Source: a virus
Reading direction: 5' to 3' (one strand)
Length of the DNA: 11,283 nt
Virus genome (UHGV): UHGV-1552661
Below are positions 1 to 11,283 of this stretch, piece by piece. Positions within the stretch are counted from its first letter, which is position 1, and each line of letters opens with the position of its first letter. Under the pieces are notes generated by a model. That model was not told the DNA's origin. It did not search any database and saw only the letters and a list, made by a program, of their open reading frames with translations. The position numbers and the translations under genes are program-made.

Positions 1-22
1 CGGAGATGTGTATAAGAGACAG
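1..22 (+). other. Sequencing-adapter remnant: 3' end of Illumina Nextera read-2 adapter including the 19-nt Tn5 mosaic end AGATGTGTATAAGAGACAG
   Basis: Positions 1-22 read CGGAGATGTGTATAAGAGACAG, matching from memory the 3' end of the Nextera transposase adapter (...GGGCTCGG + AGATGTGTATAAGAGACAG). The ATG at position 6 that opens the six-frame ORF lies inside this adapter and is therefore artefactual. Confidence 0.85.
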
Positions 23-23
23 G

Positions 24-383
24 GAATTTGTTAAATCTAAGAAAACTTATAATATGAAACTAGGCGGTATCGGTGGCTTCCCAAAACATAACACAGCGGG
101 TGCTAAAAATGGATTTTACGGTAAATCTCATTCGCGTGAAACTAGATTGAAAATTAGCATTAAATCGTCTAGAAAAAGAGGGCCTAGAGGGCCTAGAGGT
201 AAAACTCTGAAGATGTGTGGCGCCAATAACCCAAGGTATGGCAAAATAGCCCCTAATGCTAAATCTGTTATTATCAACGGCGTTTTATATAAAAGTATTA
301 AAATCGCAGCTAAAGCTCTTAATATAAATTATAGTACCTTAAAGGGGCGAGTTAAAGCGGGGTATTATAAATGTCAGGATTAA
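24..383 (+). CDS. 5'-truncated homing endonuclease (I-TevI/Seg-like GIY-YIG family), C-terminal DNA-binding region only; catalytic domain lies upstream of the contig start
   Basis: Open frame continues from the first native codon (24) with no upstream stop; first native Met is at 54. Translation contains a NUMOD3-like motif [17 protein letters not shown] and a second partial one GANNPRYGK. The C-terminus [30 protein letters not shown] resembles the C-terminal helix-turn-helix of I-TevI (pattern I.DGV.F....AA.....S...V.YRVK, recalled from memory). No GIY-YIG motif is present in the window. Stop TAA at 381-383. Confidence 0.6.
178..198 (+). repeat. Short GC-rich tandem repeat (9-nt unit GGCCTAGAG x2, preceded by GAG) encoding RGPRGPRG in the endonuclease linker
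   Basis: gagGGCCTAGAGGGCCTAGAGgt read directly at 178-200; a GC-rich island in an otherwise AT-rich context. Confidence 0.6.
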
Positions 384-664
384 GTTATGATAAGTGTGTT
401 ACTGCTGGCCATGAAGCGTGGCCTCCAACAGTTGTGAATGCTACGCAAAGTAAAGTATTCACTGGAGGAATTGCTGTTCTAGTAGAAGGCGATCCAATTA
501 CAGAACATACAGAAATTAAAAAGCCATATGAAACACATGGCGGAGTGACACAACCCAGAACTTCTAAGGTATATGTCACTGGAAAGAAAGCTGTTCAAAT
601 GGCTGATCCAATATCATGTGGTGATACTGTGGCTCAGGCATCATCTAAAGTATTCATTAAATAG
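371..664 (+). CDS. 5.4: Baseplate central spike tip protein, PAAR-repeat family (T4 gp5.4-like), 97 aa
   Basis: ATG at 371 preceded by a G-rich RBS (GCGGGG, about 9 nt spacer). The 97-aa length and the position immediately upstream of gene 6 match T4 gp5.4. Internal duplicated segment [12 protein letters not shown] / [12 protein letters not shown] with conserved His and Cys residues is typical of PAAR-like spike tips. Confidence 0.85.
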
Positions 665-672
665 GATTTAAA

Positions 673-2655
673 ATGGCAAATACCCCTGTAAATTATCAAT
701 TAACAAGAACAGCAAATGCTATTCCCGAGATATTCGTCGGGGGTACGTTTGCTGAAATAAAACAAAACCTCATTGAATGGCTTAATGGCCAAAATGAATT
801 TTTGGATTATGATTTTGAAGGCTCAAGATTAAACGTTCTGTGTGACCTTTTGGCTTATAATACGCTGTACATTCAGCAGTTTGGTAATGCTGCTGTATAT
901 GAAAGCTTTATGCGTACTGCTAACTTACGAAGCTCAGTTGTTCAAGCTGCACAAGATAACGGATATTTACCTACTTCAAAATCCGCTGCGCAAACCGAAA
1001 TTATGTTAACATGCACCGACGCATTGAATAGGAATTACATTACAATTCCTCGCGGAACTCGCTTTTTAGCATATGCAAAAGATACTTCTGTTAATCCATA
1101 TAACTTCGTTTCTACCGAAGACGTTATTGCTATTCGTGATAAAAATAACCAATATTTTCCGCGTTTAAAATTGGCCCAGGGACGTATAGTAAGAACTGAA
1201 ATCATTTATGATAAATTAACACCTATTATCATTTATGATAAAAATATTGATAGAAACCAGGTTAAATTATATGTTGATGGAGCGGAATGGATTAACTGGA
1301 CGAGAAAGTCAATGGTTCATGCTGGTTCAACATCAACGATTTACTATATGCGTGAAACTATTGATGGAAACACTGAATTCTATTTTGGTGAAGGTGAAAT
1401 TTCTGTTAATGCTTCTGAAGGAGCTTTGACTGCTAATTATATTGGAGGTCTTAAACCTACTCAGAACTCTACGATTGTTATTGAGTACATTAGTACTAAT
1501 GGTGCTGACGCGAACGGAGCAGTCGGATTTTCATACGCAGACACATTAACAAATATAACTGTCATCAATATTAATGAAAATCCAAACGGTGACCCAGATT
1601 TTGTTGGGGCAGATGGAGGCGGTGATCCAGAAGATATTGAGCGTATTCGCGAATTGGGTACTATTAAACGCGAAACCCAGCAACGATGCGTAACTGCGAC
1701 TGACTATGATACATTCGTTTCAGAGAGATTTGGTTCTATTATTCAAGCTGTTCAAACTTTCACTGATTCTACTAAACCCGGGTATGCATTTATTGCTGCT
1801 AAACCTAAATCAGGACTGTATTTAACTACTGTACAGCGTGAAGATATTAAAAATTATCTCAAAGACTATAATTTAGCTCCTATTACGCCATCAATTATTT
1901 CTCCTAATTATCTTTTTATTAAGACTAATTTAAAAGTCACATATGCTTTAAATAAACTGCAAGAATCCGAACAGTGGCTTGAAGGTCAAATAATTGATAA
2001 AATTGATCGCTATTATACCGAAGATGTAGAAATTTTTAACTCATCTTTCGCTAAATCTAAGATGTTAACATATGTAGATGATGCAGATCATTCTGTCATT
2101 GGTTCATCAGCGACTATTCAAATGGTTCGTGAAGTACAAAACTTCTATAAAACGCCTGAAGCGGGTATTAAATACAATAATCAAATAAAAGATCGTTCTA
2201 TGGAATCTAATACGTTTTCATTTAATTCTGGACGAAAGGTTGTAAATCCTGATACTGGTTTAGAAGAAGATGTATTATATGACGTTCGTATAGTATCAAC
2301 AGACCGAGATTCTAAAGGAATTGGTAAAGTTATTATTGGTCCATTTGCTTCTGGCGATGTTACAGAAAATGAAAACATTCAGCCGTATACAGGCAACGAT
2401 TTTAACAAATTAGCAAATTCTGATGGACGCGACAAATACTATGTTATCGGTGAAATAAATTATCCGGCTGACATGATTTATTGGAATATCGCTAAAATTA
2501 ATTTAACATCTGAAAAATTTGAGGTTCAGACTATTGAATTATATTCTGACCCAACCGATGATGTTATCTTTACCCGTGACGGTTCACTGATTGTATTTGA
2601 AAATGATTTACGTCCACAATACTTAACTATCGATTTGGAGCCTATATCACAATGA
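673..2655 (+). CDS. 6: Baseplate wedge subunit gp6, 660 aa
   Basis: Long ORF starting 8 nt after the 5.4 stop, with RBS AGGA upstream. Length 660 aa equals T4 gp6; synteny 5.4-6-7-8. Stop overlaps the gene 7 start (ATGA at 2652-2655). Confidence 0.9.
   Translation: MANTPVNYQLTRTANAIPEIFVGGTFAEIKQNLIEWLNGQNEFLDYDFEGSRLNVLCDLLAYNTLYIQQFGNAAVYESFMRTANLRSSVVQAAQDNGYLPTSKSAAQTEIMLTCTDALNRNYITIPRGTRFLAYAKDTSVNPYNFVSTEDVIAIRDKNNQYFPRLKLAQGRIVRTEIIYDKLTPIIIYDKNIDRNQVKLYVDGAEWINWTRKSMVHAGSTSTIYYMRETIDGNTEFYFGEGEISVNASEGALTANYIGGLKPTQNSTIVIEYISTNGADANGAVGFSYADTLTNITVININENPNGDPDFVGADGGGDPEDIERIRELGTIKRETQQRCVTATDYDTFVSERFGSIIQAVQTFTDSTKPGYAFIAAKPKSGLYLTTVQREDIKNYLKDYNLAPITPSIISPNYLFIKTNLKVTYALNKLQESEQWLEGQIIDKIDRYYTEDVEIFNSSFAKSKMLTYVDDADHSVIGSSATIQMVREVQNFYKTPEAGIKYNNQIKDRSMESNTFSFNSGRKVVNPDTGLEEDVLYDVRIVSTDRDSKGIGKVIIGPFASGDVTENENIQPYTGNDFNKLANSDGRDKYYVIGEINYPADMIYWNIAKINLTSEKFEVQTIELYSDPTDDVIFTRDGSLIVFENDLRPQYLTIDLEPISQ
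1201..1242 (+). repeat. 15-nt exact direct repeat ATCATTTATGATAAA (1201-1215 and 1228-1242) inside gene 6, 27-nt offset, encoding IIYDK...IIYDK
   Basis: Read directly from the sequence; in-frame 9-codon periodicity suggests a local duplication or a repeated structural motif. Confidence 0.5.
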
Positions 2656-5600
2656 CAGTAAAAGCACCTTCAGTCACTAGTCTCAGAATTTCCAAGTTAT
2701 CCGCAAATCAGGTGCAAGTACGCTGGGATGACGTTGGTGCTAATTTCTACTATTTTGTAGAAATCGCTGAGACAAAAACGGACTCGGGGGAAAATCTCCC
2801 GAGCGATCAATATCGTTGGATTAATTTAGGATATACTGCAAATAACAGCTTCTTTTTTGATGATGCTGATCCATTAACAACATACATTATTAGAGTAGCC
2901 ACAGCTGCGCAAGATTTTGAGCAGTCTGATTGGATTTATACCGAAGAGTTTGAAACTTTTGCTACGAATGCTTACACATTTCAAAACATGATTGAAATGC
3001 AATTAGCCAATAAATTCATTCAGGAAAAATTTACTCTTAACAATTCTAATTATGTCAATTTTAATAATGACACTATAATGGCTGCATTGATGAATGAATC
3101 GTTTCAATTCAGCCCATCATATGCTGATGTCTCATCAATTAGTAATTTTATTATTGGTGAAAATGAATACCATGAAATACAGGGTTCTATTCAACAAGTA
3201 TGTAAGGATATTAATCGAGTTTATTTGATGGAATCAGAAGGGATTCTATATCTTTTTGAGCGTTATCAACCCGTGGTTAAAGTATCTAATGATAAAGGAC
3301 AAACCTGGAAAGCTGTAAAGCTCTTCAATGACCGTGTAGGATATCCTTTATCTAAGACAGTATATTACCAATCTGCGAACACAACATACGTTCTAGGATA
3401 CGACAAGATTTTCTACGGCCGTAAATCTACTGATGTTAGATGGTCAGCTGATGATGTCAGATTTAGTTCGCAAGATATAACATTCGCTAAACTTGGCGAC
3501 CAATTACATCTAGGATTTGATGTAGAAATTTTTGCGACTTACGCGACTTTACCTGCGAATGTATACCGCATTGCAGAAGCTATTACTTGCACCGATGATT
3601 ACATTTACGTTGTCGCCAGAGACAAAGTTAGATACATAAAAACAAGTAATGCACCTATAGATTCTGATCCATTATCTCCAACATATTCGGAAAGGCTTTT
3701 TGAACCTGATACCATGACTATAACCGGAAATCCTAAAGCAGTATGCTATAAAATGGATTCTATCGGTGATAAAGTTTTTGCTCTTATTATTGGTGAAGTT
3801 GAAACATTAAATGCTAATCCTAGAACATCAAAAATAATTGATTCTGCTGATAAGGGAATATATGTTTTAAATCATGACACAAAAACATGGAAAAGAGTTT
3901 TTGGCAACACTGAAGAAGAAAGAAGACGTATTCAACCGGGGTACGCGAATATGTCAACTGATGGTAAATTAGTTTCTCTATCTTCGAGTAATTTTAAATT
4001 TTTAAGTGATAACGTTGTTAATGATCCTGAAACTGCAGTAAAATACCAGTTAATCGGTGCCGTTAAATATGAATTTCCTCGTGAATGGTTAGCTGATAAG
4101 CATTATCATATGATGGCATTTATAGCAGATGAAAAGTCTGATTGGGAAACTTTTACGCCTCAGCCAATGAAATACTATGCAGAACCATTCTTTAACTGGT
4201 CTAAAAAATCTAACACACGGTGTTGGATAAACAACTCTGATAGAGCTGTAGTAGTTTATGCTGATTTAAAATACACTAAAGTTATTGAAAATTTTCCAGA
4301 AACATCTCCAGATAGATTAGTTCATGAATACTGGGATGACGGCGATTGCACTATAGTAATGCCAAATGTTAAATTCACTGGATTTAAAAAATATGCATCT
4401 GGGATGCTTTTCTATAAAGCCTCCGGTGAAATAATTTCTTACTATGATTTTAACTATCGTGTGAGAGATACAGTAGAAATTATTTGGAAGCCAACTGGAA
4501 TATTTTTAAAAGCATTTTTACAAAACCAAGAGCATGAAACTCCTTGGTCGCCTGAAGAAGAGCATGGATTAGCTGACCCTGATTTAAGACCATTGATTGG
4601 CACAATGATGCCTGATTCTTATTTACTACAAGATTCGAATTTTGAGGCATTTTGCGAAGCATATATTCAGTATCTTTCTGATGGATATGGAACTCAGTAT
4701 AACAATTTACGAAATTTAATTCGTAATCAGTATCCACGAGAAGAGCATGCATGGGAATATTTGTGGTCAGAGATATATAAAAGAAACATTTATTTGAACG
4801 CGGATAAGCGAGATGCTGTTGCAAGATTTTTTGAATCACGTAGCTATGATTTTTATTCTACTAAAGGAATTGAAGCATCATACAAGTTTCTTTTTAAAGT
4901 TCTTTATAATGAAGAAGTTGAAATTGAAATTGAATCTGGGGCTGGTACTGAATATGACATAATCGTTCAATCTGATTCTTTGACTGAAGATTTAGTAGGA
5001 CAAACGATTTATACAGCCACAGGAAGATGTAATGTTACTTATATAGAAAGAAGTTATTCTAATGGTAAATTGCAATGGACCGTAACTATTCATAATCTTT
5101 TGGGAAGATTAATTGCTGGTCAAGAAGTTAAAGCAGAAAGACTCCCTAGTTTTGAAGGCGAAATTATTCGTGGAGTTAAAGGAAAGGATTTGCTTCAAAA
5201 CAATATAGACTATATTAATAGAAGTAGATCATACTATGTAATGAAAATTAAATCCAATTTACCTTCTTCCCGCTGGAAATCTGACGTTATTCGTTTTGTT
5301 CATCCAGTAGGATTTGGATTTATAGCAATTACCCTTTTAACGATGTTTATTAATGTTGGTTTAACTCTTAAACATACAGAGACTATAATTAATAAATACA
5401 AAAACTATAAATGGGATTCTGGATTGCCTACTGAATATGCTGATAGAGTAGCTAAATTAACTCCAACCGGTGAAATTGAGTATGATTCAGTAACAGGCGA
5501 AGCAATTTATGAGCCTGGCCCAATGGCTGGTGTAGAATATCCTCTTCCTGATGACTATAATGCTGAAAATAATAATTCAATATTTCAAGGTCAATTGCCG

Positions 5601-5750
5601 TCTGAACGACGTAAATTAATGAGTCCCCTATTTGATGCTTCTGGAACAACATTTGCGCAATTTAGGGATTTAGTTAATAAACGTCTAAAAGATAATATAG
5701 GAAATCCAAGAGACCCTGAAAATCCAACACAGGTTAAAATAGATGAATGA
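2652..5750 (+). CDS. 7: Baseplate wedge subunit gp7, 1032 aa
   Basis: ORF of 1032 aa, identical in length to T4 gp7. Start overlaps the gene 6 stop (ATGA); RBS GGAG about 11 nt upstream. Stop TGA at 5748-5750 overlaps the gene 8 start. Confidence 0.9.
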   Translation: MTVKAPSVTSLRISKLSANQVQVRWDDVGANFYYFVEIAETKTDSGENLPSDQYRWINLGYTANNSFFFDDADPLTTYIIRVATAAQDFEQSDWIYTEEFETFATNAYTFQNMIEMQLANKFIQEKFTLNNSNYVNFNNDTIMAALMNESFQFSPSYADVSSISNFIIGENEYHEIQGSIQQVCKDINRVYLMESEGILYLFERYQPVVKVSNDKGQTWKAVKLFNDRVGYPLSKTVYYQSANTTYVLGYDKIFYGRKSTDVRWSADDVRFSSQDITFAKLGDQLHLGFDVEIFATYATLPANVYRIAEAITCTDDYIYVVARDKVRYIKTSNAPIDSDPLSPTYSERLFEPDTMTITGNPKAVCYKMDSIGDKVFALIIGEVETLNANPRTSKIIDSADKGIYVLNHDTKTWKRVFGNTEEERRRIQPGYANMSTDGKLVSLSSSNFKFLSDNVVNDPETAVKYQLIGAVKYEFPREWLADKHYHMMAFIADEKSDWETFTPQPMKYYAEPFFNWSKKSNTRCWINNSDRAVVVYADLKYTKVIENFPETSPDRLVHEYWDDGDCTIVMPNVKFTGFKKYASGMLFYKASGEIISYYDFNYRVRDTVEIIWKPTGIFLKAFLQNQEHETPWSPEEEHGLADPDLRPLIGTMMPDSYLLQDSNFEAFCEAYIQYLSDGYGTQYNNLRNLIRNQYPREEHAWEYLWSEIYKRNIYLNADKRDAVARFFESRSYDFYSTKGIEASYKFLFKVLYNEEVEIEIESGAGTEYDIIVQSDSLTEDLVGQTIYTATGRCNVTYIERSYSNGKLQWTVTIHNLLGRLIAGQEVKAERLPSFEGEIIRGVKGKDLLQNNIDYINRSRSYYVMKIKSNLPSSRWKSDVIRFVHPVGFGFIAITLLTMFINVGLTLKHTETIINKYKNYKWDSGLPTEYADRVAKLTPTGEIEYDSVTGEAIYEPGPMAGVEYPLPDDYNAENNNSIFQGQLPSERRKLMSPLFDASGTTFAQFRDLVNKRLKDNIGNPRDPENPTQVKIDE

Positions 5751-6747
5751 TTCAAGTGTTATCTATCGTGCGATAGTTACTTCAAAATTTAGAACAGAAA
5801 AAATGTTGAATTTTTATAATTCAATTGGGAGTGGTCCGGATAAAAACACTATCTTTATCACATTTGGAAGATCAGAACCGTGGTCATCAAATGAAAATGA
5901 GGTGGGCTTTGCCCCACCTTATCCAACCGATTCTGTATTAGGCGTAACTGACATATGGACGCATATGATGGGAACAGTAAAGGTTCTTCCATCAATGCTT
6001 GATGCAGTTATTCCTCGTCGAGATTGGGGAGATACTAGATATCCGGATCCGTATACATTTAGAATTAACGATATTGTAGTGTGTAACTCAGCTCCTTACA
6101 ACGCTACTGAATCAGGCGCAGGCTGGTTAGTATATCGTTGTTTAGATGTTCCTGATACTGGAATGTGTTCAATCGCATCTTTAACTGATAAGGATGAATG
6201 CCTTAAATTAGGCGGAAAATGGACACCTTCTGTTAGGTCAATGACTCCTCCTGAAGGTCGAGGAGATGCTGAAGGAACAATTGAACCTGGGGACGGGTAT
6301 GTATGGGAATATCTTTTTGAGATTCCGCCTGATGTATCTATAAATAGATGCACGAATGAATATATCGTGGTTCCTTGGCCTGAGGAATTAAAAGAAGACC
6401 CGACTAGATGGGGATATGAAGATAATCTCACTTGGCAACAAGATGATTTTGGATTAATTTACCGGGTTAAGGCAAATACTATCCGTTTTAAAGCATATTT
6501 AGATTCAGTTTATTTTCCTGATGCTGCATTGCCAGGAAATAAAGGATTTAGACAAATATCAATAATCACGAATCCTCTTGAAGCTAAAGCTCATCCAAAT
6601 GACCCAAACGTTAAAGCTGAAAAGGATTATTATGACCCAGAAGATTTAATGAGGCATTCGGGCGAAATGATTTATATGGAAAATAGGCCACCTATTATTA
6701 TGGCAATGGATCAAACAGAAGAAATCAATATTCTGTTTACATTTTAA
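5743..6747 (+). CDS. 8: Baseplate wedge subunit gp8, 334 aa
   Basis: ORF of 334 aa (T4 gp8 length) beginning MNDSSVIYRAIV. ATG at 5743 overlaps the gene 7 stop by 8 nt. Followed by the only intergenic gap, which contains a terminator. Confidence 0.9.
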   Translation: MNDSSVIYRAIVTSKFRTEKMLNFYNSIGSGPDKNTIFITFGRSEPWSSNENEVGFAPPYPTDSVLGVTDIWTHMMGTVKVLPSMLDAVIPRRDWGDTRYPDPYTFRINDIVVCNSAPYNATESGAGWLVYRCLDVPDTGMCSIASLTDKDECLKLGGKWTPSVRSMTPPEGRGDAEGTIEPGDGYVWEYLFEIPPDVSINRCTNEYIVVPWPEELKEDPTRWGYEDNLTWQQDDFGLIYRVKANTIRFKAYLDSVYFPDAALPGNKGFRQISIITNPLEAKAHPNDPNVKAEKDYYDPEDLMRHSGEMIYMENRPPIIMAMDQTEEINILFTF

Positions 6748-6752
6748 ATTAA

Positions 6753-6780
6753 GGGAGCCCATGGGCTCCCTTTTTTCTTT
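6753..6780 (+). terminator. Rho-independent terminator after gene 8: perfect 18-nt palindrome GGGAGCCCATGGGCTCCC (7-bp GC-rich stem, CATG loop) followed by TTTTTTCTTT
   Basis: Palindrome at 6753-6770 is its own reverse complement; a T-run at 6771-6780 follows immediately; it sits 6 nt after the gene 8 stop codon. Confidence 0.75.
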
Positions 6781-6787
6781 ATAAATA
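6780..6787 (+). promoter_or_regulatory. T4-type late promoter core TATAAATA upstream of gene 9
   Basis: Exact TATAAATA at 6780-6787, 25 nt upstream of the gene 9 ATG and followed by RBS AAGGA (about 6800-6804). T4 late promoters (gp55-dependent) consist essentially of this 8-mer at about -10. Confidence 0.6.
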
Positions 6788-6811
6788 TTATAAACTCATA
6801 AGGAAACCGCT

Positions 6812-7678
6812 ATGTTCATTCAAGAACCAAAGAAATTGATTGATACCGGCGAAATTGGTAACGCTTCTACTGGTGATATCTTATTCGACGGTGGTAATAA
6901 AATTAATAGTGATTTTAACGCAATTTATAATGCGTTTGGCGATCAGCGTAAAATGGCAGTAGCAAATGGCACCGGAGCTGATGGTCAAATTATCCATGCT
7001 ACTGGATATTATCAAAAACACTCTATTGCTGAGTATGCAACTCCGGTGAAAGTTGGCACTAGACATGATATTGATACCTCTACTGTAGGTGTTAAAGTTA
7101 TTATTGAAAGAGGCGAACTCGGCGATTGTGTTGAATTCATTAACTCTAATGGATCAATATCAGTTACTAATCCTTTAACAATTCAAGCTATTGATTCAAT
7201 TAAAGGTGTTTCAGGTAATTTAGTAGTAACTAGCCCATATAGTAAAGTAACTTTACGCTGTATTTCATCTGATAATTCTACATCGGTTTGGAATTATTCT
7301 ATTGAAAGTATGTTTGGACAAAAGGAATCACCAGCTGAAGGTACATGGAATATTTCTACATCCGGATCAGTTGATATTCCACTATTTCATCGCACTGAAT
7401 ACAATATGGCTAAATTGTTAGTTACGTGCCAATCGGTAGATGGAAGAAAAATTAAAACGGCAGAAATAAATATTCTTGTAGATACTGTTAATTCAGAAGT
7501 CATTTCTTCTGAATACGCTGTCATGCGGGTTGGAAATGAAATAGAAGAAGACGAAATCGCTAATATTGCATTTAGTATTAAAGAAAATTATGTAACGGCA
7601 ACTATAAGTTCTTCAACTGTCGGTATGAGAGCAGCAGTTAAAGTTATCGCTACGCAGAAAATCGGGGTGGCTCAATAA
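6812..7678 (+). CDS. 9: Baseplate wedge protein gp9 (long tail fibre attachment socket), 288 aa
   Basis: 288-aa ORF (T4 gp9 length) with RBS AAGGA 7 nt upstream. Stop TAA overlaps the gene 10 start (TAATG at 7676-7680). Confidence 0.9.
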   Translation: MFIQEPKKLIDTGEIGNASTGDILFDGGNKINSDFNAIYNAFGDQRKMAVANGTGADGQIIHATGYYQKHSIAEYATPVKVGTRHDIDTSTVGVKVIIERGELGDCVEFINSNGSISVTNPLTIQAIDSIKGVSGNLVVTSPYSKVTLRCISSDNSTSVWNYSIESMFGQKESPAEGTWNISTSGSVDIPLFHRTEYNMAKLLVTCQSVDGRKIKTAEINILVDTVNSEVISSEYAVMRVGNEIEEDEIANIAFSIKENYVTATISSSTVGMRAAVKVIATQKIGVAQ

Positions 7679-9483
7679 TGAAACAAAATATTAATATCGG
7701 TAATGTTGTAGATGATGGTACCGGTGACTACCTGCGTAAAGGTGGTATAAAAATAAATGAAAACTTTGATGAGCTTTATTACGAGCTTGGTGATGGAGAT
7801 GTTCCATATTCAGCCGGTGCCTGGAAAACTTATAATGCTTCATCAGGACAAACATTAACGGCAGAATGGGGAAAATCATATGCTATTAACACTTCATCTG
7901 GAAGAGTAACTCTACAACTTCCTAAAGGAACCGTTAATGATTATAATAAAGTAATTAAAGCTAGGGATGTATTTGCAACATGGAATGTTAATCCAGTTAC
8001 TCTAGTAGCCGCTTCTGGTGATACTATTAAAGGATCATCGTCATCAGTTGAAATTAATGTTCAATTTAGCGATTTAGAGTTAGTTTATTGTGCTCCAGGA
8101 CGTTGGGAATATGTCAAAAACAAACAAATTGACAAAATTATTAGTTCAGATATTAGTAATGTAGCACGTAAAGAATTTTTAGTCGAAGTTCAAGGACAAA
8201 CAGACTTTTTAGATGTTTTCCGCGGAACTAGCTATAATGTTAATAACATCCGAGTAAAACACCGTGGTAATGAATTATATTACGGCGATGTATTTAGTGA
8301 AAACAGTGACTTTGGCTCTCCTGGGGAAAATGAAGGAGAATTGATTCCTCTTGATGGATTTAATATTAGGTTAAGACAGCCTTGTAATATTGGTGACACT
8401 GTTCAAATTGAAACATTTATGGATGGTATATCACAATGGAGAAGTTCATATACAAGACGCCAAATAAAAGTATTAGATTCAAAATTAACGTCAAAAACTT
8501 CTTTAGAAGGAAGTATTTACGTTACTGATTTATCAACAATGAAATCAATTCCATTCTCTGCATTTGGATTAATTCCTGGAGAACCTATTAATCCTAATTC
8601 TCTTGAAGTTCGTTTTAATGGAATTTTACAACAACAAGCTGGAACAGCAGGATATCCTCTGTTTTTGTGTGAAGGTGCTAACTCAGATACGCAAGCAGGA
8701 TGTATATCTCTTGGTGGTGAATGGAAAGAATCGAACACAGATTATTCTATAGAATATGAAGATGGAAAACCTGCCAGTCTTTTATTTGATAGAAAATTTG
8801 AATCAGGTGATATAATCGTTATAACATGGTTTAATAATGATTTAGGAACTCTTTTAGAAAAAGATGACATTATTGAATTAACTGATGACCGTTATGTTAG
8901 TAAAGGATCATCTACTGAAGTTACTGGGGATGTAGCCTTAACAGATTTTGATAAAATCGGTTGGCCAAATGTTGAAAAAGTTGATTCTTATACTAGAACG
9001 TATAATTCAATATCATCTATTTTCGACAGCATTTATCCTGTTGGTTCAATTTATGAAAATGCTATAAACCCAAATAATCCGGTGACTTATATGGGATTTG
9101 GTTCATGGAAATTATTTGGTAAAGGACAAGTTTTAGTAGGATGGAATGATGATGTTACGGATCCAAACTTTGCTTTAAACAATAATGATTTAGATTCTAG
9201 CGGAAATCCTTCACATACTGCCGGTGGAACAGTTGGTACAACATCAGTAACGCTTGAAAACGCAAATCTTCCTGCGACTAAAACTGATGAAAGAGTTTTA
9301 ATTGAAGACGAAAATGGATCAGTTATTATTGGAGGATGTCAATATGACCCAGACGAAACTGGTCCTATATATACAAAATATCGTGAAGACTACGCAACAA
9401 CAAACTCTTCACATACTCCTCCTACTAATATTAGTAATATTCAACCGTCTATTACTGTATACCGTTGGATAAGGATTGCATAA
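7678..9483 (+). CDS. 10: Baseplate wedge subunit and tail pin gp10, 601 aa
   Basis: 601-aa ORF (T4 gp10 recalled as about 602 aa). N-terminal motif is shared with gp9. RBS GGGGTGG upstream. Stop TAA 9481-9483 overlaps the gene 11 ATG (9483-9485). Confidence 0.9.
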
Positions 9484-10142
9484 TGAGTTTACTTAATAAT
9501 AAAGCGGGAGTTATTTCCCGCTTAGCAGATTTTCTTGGTTTTAGAACTAAGAAAAATGATATTTCGGTTATGAATAATCAGCCGGTAGGCGCTGTAACAA
9601 TTTCACAAATAGCAAAAGGTTTTTATGACTCAAATGTAGAATCTGCTATCAATGATGTTAGAAATATGGCAGAGCAACAGGTTGGAGCTGTATTAATTAA
9701 TATAAGCGGCGTATCTCCTACTGGCGTGCAACAAACCGACTATTGGTCATTTGAAGGAACTGTTACTGATACTTCAGCCAAACCAGGTGACCCAGTTATT
9801 GTTAACATGTTTGGTATTCCAGTTAAAGCTACTAATGGAATGACTTCAATTGAATTTACTAGTGCTGTTAGAACAGCTCTACAGGAAATGGTTGTAAAAT
9901 TTATTGCAATTGATTCATTTGAAGACCATCCTACTATAGGGAATAAAATACAAGTTAAGTATTTAGATAACCAAGAACATATCTTAGAGCAATACTCTGA
10001 TAAAGGAATTACTTTCAAACAAGAAATAATTTCTCCTTCTAAACCCGGGTATGGAACTTGGCAATTATTAGGTGCGCAAACTGTTACGCTAGATAGTCAT
10101 ACACAACCTACAGTATTTTATTATTTTGAGAGAATAGCATGA
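9483..10142 (+). CDS. 11: Baseplate wedge subunit and tail pin gp11 (short tail fibre attachment), 219 aa
   Basis: Start chosen at ATG 9483 ([20 protein letters not shown]) rather than the six-frame start at 9465, because 9483 gives 219 aa (T4 gp11 length), has RBS AAGGA about 7 nt upstream, and avoids an 18-nt overlap with gene 10. Stop TGA 10140-10142 overlaps the gene 12 ATG. Confidence 0.9.
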
Positions 10143-11283
10143 GTAACAATACATATCAGCACGTATCAAATGAATCAAAATATGTTAAATTCGATCCCAC
10201 TGGATCGAATTTTCCTGGCACTGTTACGACAGTACAGTCTGCATTATCAAAAATAAGTAATATCGGCGTAAATGGTATTCCTGATGCAACTATGGAAGTT
10301 AAAGGAATAGCAATGATTGCATCAGAGCAAGAGGTTTTAGATGGAACAAATAATTCTAAAATCGTTACACCAGCTACATTAGCAACAAGATTATTGTATC
10401 CAAATGCTACTGAAACTAAATATGGTTTAACGCGCTATTCAACAAATGAAGAAACATTAGAAGGCTCAGATAATAATTCATCAATAACGCCGCAAAAACT
10501 GAAATACCATACTGATGATGTGTTCCGAAATAGATATTCATCTGAGTCATCAAACGGGGTTATTAAAATATCATCTACGCCTGCAGCTTTGGCTGGTGTC
10601 GATGATACTACGGCGATGACTCCGTTGAAAACCCAAAAACTTGCAATAAAATTAATTTCACAAATAGCTCCTTCCGAAGATACTGCATCAGAATCTGTGA
10701 GAGGTGTAGTTCAATTATCTACTGTTGCGCAAACTCGTCAAGGAACTCTCCGCGAAGGATATGCAATTTCCCCATATACCTTTATGAATTCTGTTGCAAC
10801 ACAAGAATATAAGGGTGTTATACGTCTAGGAACACAAGCAGAAATTAATAATAATTTGGGGGATGTTGCAGTAACAGGTGAAACACTAAATGGTCGAGGA
10901 GCTACCGGTTCTATGCGTGGGGTAGTAAAATTAACGACGCAAGCTGGTATTGCTCCTGAAGGTGATAGCTCTGGGGCATTAGCCTGGAACGCAGATGTAA
11001 TTAATACTCGTGGTGGACAAACTATTAATGGTTCTTTAAATTTAGATCATCTTACAGCAAACGGAATTTGGTCGCGCGGCGGAATGTGGAAAAATGGCGA
11101 TCAACCTGTTGCCACTGAAAGATATGCGTCCGAAAGAATTCCAGTTGGGACTATTATGATGTTTGCAGGTGATTCAGCACCTCCTGGTTGGCTTATGTGC
11201 CATGGTGGAACCGTGTCAGGTGACCAATTTCCTGATTATAGAAACGTAGTTGGAGGAAGATTTGGTGGGGATTGGAATAATCC
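10139..11283 (+). CDS. 12: Short tail fibre protein gp12, 3'-truncated at the window end (N-terminal ~381 codons)
   Basis: ATG at 10139 (ATGA overlap with the gene 11 stop); frame stays open to the window end. Translation starts [20 protein letters not shown] and carries about six tandem fibre repeats (G-[VI]-x-[KRQ]-[LI]-[ST]-T type, e.g. [54 protein letters not shown]). Not in the supplied ORF track because it has no stop within the window. Confidence 0.9.

Follow-up and report, generated by a model that had tools for sequence, protein, structure and literature searches.

The first 22 nt of the window, by which we mean the whole 11,283-nt stretch of viral DNA analyzed here (UHGV virus genome UHGV-1552661), are almost certainly a library-preparation artifact (probability of about 97%), i.e., Nextera adapter sequence left in place by tagmentation and failed trimming. 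Adapter identity, the exact junction, the reading frame across it, the native upstream sequence of relatives, and the inward-pointing geometry at the contig terminus were all read directly from the sequences compared. The remaining 11 kb belong to a T4-like phage, and the adapter supplies a false start to the truncated homing endonuclease gene segC with which the contig begins. The features at this end of the window are as follows.

1 to 22, plus strand: Nextera Tn5ME-B remnant, synthetic and nonphage; 22/22 match to GTCTCGTGGGCTCGGAGATGTGTATAAGAGACAG, present at this locus in no T4-like genome
4 to 22, plus strand: hyperactive Tn5 mosaic end (ME), 19 nt, joined to the insert at its 3' end; one exact match, none in 200 shuffles
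6 to 383, plus strand: chimeric ORF of 125 amino acids; MCIRD from the adapter, R from the chimeric codon at 21 to 23, then SegC residues 80 to 198
23 to 383, plus strand: native 3' fragment of segC; ungapped identity to, and segC/homing endonuclease annotation in, the reference genomes

RESULTS

The window starts with the end of Nextera adapter B

The window opens with CGGAGATGTGTATAAGAGACAG (positions 1 to 22), and GGAATTTGTTAAATC... follows directly at the junction. Anchored at the 3' end, this 22-mer agrees at 22 of 22 positions with the 3'-terminal stretch of the Nextera Read-2/i7-side adapter Tn5ME-B (GTCTCGTGGGCTCGGAGATGTGTATAAGAGACAG), in agreement with the original prediction that the contig begins with the 3' end of a Nextera adapter. 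The window holds 22 of the adapter's 34 nt, with the 3' end of the ME joined to the insert, as in the adapter, at the contig terminus. The 19-nt ME itself (AGATGTGTATAAGAGACAG) occurs as one exact copy in the window (4 to 22, plus strand, 19/19) and was recovered in none of 200 dinucleotide-preserving shuffles of the window, even when up to 3 mismatches were tolerated. Because both matches are exact and the shuffles produced none, the correspondence between positions 1 to 22 and the adapter is confirmed as real, located at these coordinates, and far beyond chance.

Picelli et al. 2014 (PMC4248319) give the oligonucleotide sequences of Tn5ME-A and Tn5ME-B. The ME is a hyperactive, synthetic substitute for the wild-type Tn5 ends, engineered as a hybrid of the natural 19-bp OE and IE ends, and Nextera kits attach free ME adapters to the 5' ends of target DNA (PMC4248319). 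A literature text search retrieved 3,293 papers in which both Nextera adapter sequences are printed; the Nextera trimming sequence is CTGTCTCTTATACACATCT.

Four other candidate sources were rejected on mismatches. Positions 1 to 22 differ at 3 positions from adapter A (the Read-1 adapter, TCGTCGGCAGCGTC plus ME), at 3 from the natural Tn5 OE (CTGACTCTTATACACAAGT), at 4 from the IE (CTGTCTCTTGATCAGATCT), and at 2 from an EZ-Tn5 <KAN-2>-type end, the last being the weaker comparison. The natural Tn5/IS50 ends are the parents of the hybrid ME, but the distances to OE and IE exclude a natural Tn5 insertion. The call of adapter B over other ME-bearing constructs is made by only 3 nt outside the ME: CGG at positions 1 to 3, immediately 5' of the ME, corresponds to the adapter B end (...GGGCTCGG), whereas the adapter A end (...GCAGCGTC) would give GTC, accounting for 3 mismatches.

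The remainder of the window is collinear with T4-like genomes

Once past the adapter, the window (23 to 11283) runs collinear with Tequatrovirus (T4-like) genomes through segC, gene 5.4, and genes 6 to 12. The best match is Shigella phage SHFML-26 (97.8% identity over 19 to 11283); coverage of the window reaches 80% or more in 638 phage records. Transfer of features from NC_031011.1, combined with the ORF list, yielded the following gene map, in which all genes lie on the plus strand.

Up to 383, plus strand: segC, 3' part
371 to 664, plus strand: gene 5.4 (PAAR)
673 to 2655, plus strand: gp6
2652 to 5750, plus strand: gp7
5743 to 6747, plus strand: gp8
6812 to 7678, plus strand: gp9
7678 to 9483, plus strand: gp10
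9483 to 10142, plus strand: gp11
10139 to 11283, plus strand: gp12, first 381 codons

At the 3' end, alignment to the references holds up to and including base 11283, and a search for a reverse-complement adapter remnant there found none.

The segC locus varies among members of Tequatrovirus. In VEc20, GADU22, KK4, and vB_EcoM_112, the match to the window sets in only at position 367, shortly ahead of the gene 5.4 start (371), a presence/absence pattern that fits segC being a mobile homing endonuclease gene. In a mixed sample, such polymorphism could contribute to an assembly break at this point. Among the relatives is also a record named Pseudomonas phage vB_PSGBLB0006 (PV654520.1; listed host, P. 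aeruginosa ATCC 9027), which is 97.5% identical to the window over 19 to 11283. The host assignment of this record looks doubtful, and contamination or mislabeling is possible.

Native sequence begins at position 23, within segC codon 79

In ungapped comparison, homology to T4, BCPEco_001, and SHFML-11 begins exactly at window position 23, which corresponds to the junction 80431|80432 of NC_000866.4, inside segC codon 79. Upstream of this point, only 7 of 22 positions match T4, and base-by-base inspection showed that T4, BCPEco_001, and SHFML-11 carry ...GTCACAGA / CAGAGGCAGAAATAGTCACAGA 5' of the junction, not adapter. The prediction that native sequence sets in at about position 23, inside a gene, is thus borne out.

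BLAST places the boundary slightly differently. Coverage of window positions 1 to 1200 is 80% or more in 37 records, in every one of which the alignment starts at position 19, and no T4-like record among the GenBank phages aligns to positions 1 to 18. The native sequence at the junction reads ...AAATAGTCACAG-A-GGAATTTG... (ACAG-A-GGAATT); the BLAST start at 19 arises because this chance native ACAG, together with a 1-nt gap, lets four adapter bases align. A native start at position 19 was rejected, since it needs a 1-nt gap right after a 4-nt match while an ungapped alignment fits perfectly from 23. Homology to T4-like genomes only after position 22, as predicted, therefore holds for ungapped alignment, with BLAST beginning earlier through the 1-nt gap. 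When the first nine native bases (GGAATTTGT) are set against the weak target preference of Tn5, GNTYWRANC, the leading G alone fits, too little to be informative.

The first ORF joins adapter codons to a segC fragment

Codon 79 of segC contributes only its third base, at window position 23, and codon 80 opens at position 24. The ATG within the ME (6 to 8) shares its frame with segC, and the ORF from 6 to 383 is a chimera because the junction falls inside codon 79: codon 21 to 23, AGG, encodes R and combines AG of the adapter with a native G, where the native codon is GAG (Glu79). After MCIRDR, the ORF continues as EFVKSKK...YKCQD*, and full-length homologues of SegC have ...AEIVTE-EFVKSKK at this point. 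As had been proposed, neither the Met at position 6 nor the MCIRDR that it opens is therefore native, the sixth residue being contributed by the chimeric codon. The frame stays open up to the contig edge (codon 3 to 5 is GAG), and therefore a gene caller reports either the false ATG or a 5'-partial gene with adapter-encoded residues.

Membership in SegC follows from sequence identity together with synteny as in T4, where segC lies between 5.1 and 5.4; in the window, 5.4 and then gp6 to gp12 come after the ORF. Intact segC encodes about 198 amino acids (PV295200.1, KX130861.1), and window positions 24 to 383 correspond to residues 80 to 198 of this T4-like protein, identical in alignment to those of BCPEco_001 and SHFML-11. 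Like SegC, the window part carries NUMOD3 and I-TevI-type DNA-binding motifs. Pfam scored NUMOD3 above cutoff in the window ORF (29.8 bits) and I-TevI_DNA-bd just below its 27-bit cutoff (25.0 bits); a full-length homologue adds SegE_GIY-YIG (27.2 bits; cutoff, 25) and, below cutoff, GIY-YIG at residues 8 to 82. Pfam detected no GIY-YIG catalytic domain in the window ORF; in homologues, it sits at residues ~8 to 82, past the contig end. Its absence is due to truncation of the gene by the assembly and is not a property of the phage. On these domain assignments, the 125-residue product is a C-terminal DNA-binding fragment with a fabricated N terminus.

Comparison with T4 SegC (NP_049761.1 plus gene 5.3) brought out a peculiarity of the T4 reference. 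In NC_000866.4, the same ORF is split by a 1-nt difference into a 140-residue segC and a separate gene 5.3, whereas the window, BCPEco_001, and SHFML-11 are collinear with one continuous 198-codon frame. A single C is missing from NC_000866.4 (around positions 764 to 780 of the locus) in a tandem 9-bp repeat whose window counterpart is GGGCCTAGAGGGCCTAGA (181 to 198). Given this missing C, the segC/5.3 split is either a strain frameshift or an error in the reference sequence. Other T4 records (e.g., HM137666.1 T4T and MT984581.1) list segC and 5.4 without 5.3.

The adapter-phage junction is absent from five collections

The case that would speak for a native origin, i.e., the 22-mer contiguous with the downstream phage sequence in other records, was sought in five collections and not found. 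Exact-pattern scans of IMG/VR, JGI metagenomes, and GTDB species genomes returned no adapter-phage junction. With window positions 1 to 45 as the BLAST query, no record reached 80% query coverage among either 50,697 GenBank phage records or 5,426 complete E. coli genomes, and the junction was absent from the latter.

ME-like sequence as such occurs in 6 of the 5,426 complete E. coli genomes, including EPI300 and two MG-phbCAB strains, all three evidently engineered or laboratory strains. The MG-phbCAB strains carry it at 12 and 16 places, and the copies in EPI300 and MG-phbCAB presumably derive from engineered Tn5-type integrations. The E. coli record NZ_LR882052.1 matches window positions 1 to 23, CGG included; adapter may have been left in this "complete" chromosome.

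The same adapter marks the ends of other public contigs

Nextera adapter remnants are common in public data. The exact 22-mer occurs in at least 120 IMG/VR contigs, and among the IMG/VR matches listed, 122 of 123 occurrences sit no more than 54 nt from a locus end, facing inward. True contig ends account for 121 of the 123 listed, the exception among the 122 locus ends being L088. In the other public contigs listed, a median of 25 further nt separates the 22-mer from the contig end. By eye, about two thirds of the listed IMG/VR contigs come from data set 3300045988, an excess that suggests a trimming failure specific to that data set. Two IMG/VR loci (L012 and L077) carry the 22-mer at both ends, an arrangement that could be mistaken for inverted terminal repeats. 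The sole clearly internal case among the matches listed is at positions 3701 to 3722 of L020 (IMGVR_UViG_3300010234_000504), a 190-kb contig in which the reverse-complement adapter runs on to ...CCGAGCCCACGAGAC and then into unrelated sequence, which suggests a chimeric assembly join.

The adapter also matches 128 GenBank phage records, and in 82 of these the match spans 80% or more of the adapter. The first 30 nt of NC_049385.1 (Peduovirus P22H4) are the same Nextera adapter, and its first coding sequence (16..156; YP_009877124.1) takes a GTG within the ME as its start and reads VYKRQGKAL.... That record thus takes its false start from the GTG of the ME; in the window, the ATG of the ME plays this part, and segC is the gene affected. 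Salmonella phage SW9 (NC_049459.1 / MK972711.1) has the window 22-mer at positions 9 to 30, so that its record, like NC_049385.1, apparently opens with these 30 nt of adapter.

In NC_054919.1 (Escherichia phage vB_EcoM_G4507, T4-like), a complete i7 primer lies inside gp5 (~76676 to 76759 of the record), in the order poly-T, CAAGCAGAAGACGGCATACGAGAT (P7), CAGCCTCG (index), GTCTCGTGGGCTCGG, and ME, its last 22 nt being those of window positions 1 to 22. As a consequence of this internal primer, gene 5 is annotated there as two "baseplate hub subunit and tail lysozyme" coding sequences. The T4-like records G10400, G4500, and KAW1E185, from the same series, have the full 34-mer internally. The warning that a false start codon and N terminus would propagate on deposition is well founded, the RefSeq records NC_049385.1 and NC_054919.1 showing the same defect. 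We searched the literature for work that charts Nextera adapter contamination systematically across public assemblies and found nothing specific.

DISCUSSION

Read-through of a short tagmented fragment, followed by failed trimming, is the history that we infer for positions 1 to 22, together with the reason why the assembler stopped there; it builds on established tagmentation chemistry (PMC4248319). Tn5 loaded with Nextera adapters would have tagmented the phage DNA, and one insertion would have joined Tn5ME-B to the phage strand directly before window base 23. If the resulting fragment was shorter than the read length, a Read-1-type read would have run through from the far side into the B adapter; no read begins with adapter, and reverse-complemented adapter appears at the end of a read if the read is longer than its insert. 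Such a read would have ended ...CAAATTCC|CTGTCTCTTATACACATCTCCG, the reverse complement of window positions 1 to 30. The reverse complement of positions 1 to 40, TTAGATTTAACAAATTCC|CTGTCTCTTATACACATCTCCG, does resemble a Read-1 sequence passing through a short insert into the B adapter. Adapter trimming may then have been skipped or incomplete, e.g., run against the wrong adapter set, and the assembler would have extended the contig end with the untrimmed tail, which would appear as forward adapter at the 5' terminus. A mechanism of this kind places the adapter at a contig terminus with its ME pointing inward. The ATG of the ME (AG-ATG-TG) falls in the segC frame by chance, with a probability of 1 in 3, and it is this coincidence that creates the false start and the six-residue false N terminus.

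The best-surviving alternative is still very improbable. It posits a physical laboratory transposon or cassette flanked by MEs and inserted in segC codon 79 of the phage or of a subpopulation, with the contig breaking inside it; the contig would then come from an engineered or mutagenized T4-like phage and would not reflect a trimming failure. The ME does end commercial and custom mini-Tn5 elements, and the complete genomes of EPI300 and MG-phbCAB strains contain ME copies. An insertion in segC would also be tolerable, the gene being nonessential in that several Tequatrovirus genomes lack it. Against this, the CGG outside the ME is that of adapter B, the EZ-Tn5 <KAN-2>-type end differs at two bases, and the terminal, inward geometry is the artifact pattern seen in the 121 of 123 occurrences among the IMG/VR matches listed. 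Moreover, a contig that stops 22 nt into foreign sequence looks like a read tail and not like an insertion covered by reads.

Less probable again is a two-step PCR of the kind used for 16S, in which an overhang (GTCTCGTGGGCTCGGAGATGTGTATAAGAGACAG) fused to a locus primer (GGAATTTGTT...) would make the contig a long amplicon. Adapter overhangs are widely used, and amplicon studies are frequent among the papers that print both adapter sequences, but it is hard to see why anyone would amplify 11.3 kb from segC to midway through gene 12. At the far end, no remnant of adapter A is present, and the window stops mid-gene at an arbitrary point, aligned to the references through its last base.

An origin of the 22 nt in the phage itself or in natural IS50/Tn5, with the likeness to the adapter due to chance or descent, can be set aside with practical certainty and is refuted as far as sequence comparison allows: the alignment of ACAG (19 to 22) to native sequence through a 1-nt gap speaks for it, but with uniform base frequencies the probability of meeting all 22 nt exactly at one given position is ~6e-14 (4^-22), none of the 200 shuffles produced the ME, the natural ends are 3 (OE) and 4 (IE) bases away, all 37 records align only from position 19, the three relatives checked base by base differ upstream (T4 matching at 7 of 22 ungapped positions), and among 5,426 complete E. 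coli genomes ME-like sequence occurs in 6 and the junction in none.

Read as an untrimmed Nextera adapter, positions 1 to 22 are a technical artifact, a matter of routine cleanup and no biological feature, and the importance of the finding is limited to data hygiene. Adapter remnants are a well-known class of contaminant, and adapter and vector screens are built to catch them. Such tails make unrelated contigs look spuriously alike and may be misread as terminal repeats. Deposited as it is, the contig would contribute 22 nt of synthetic sequence and a 125-residue "protein" with a false Met and the N terminus MCIRDR. This ORF passes for a complete small gene, when it is really the C-terminal part of a 198-residue GIY-YIG homing endonuclease. 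The cure is to trim positions 1 to 22 and to annotate 23 to 383 as a 5'-partial segC without a start codon, translated from position 24.
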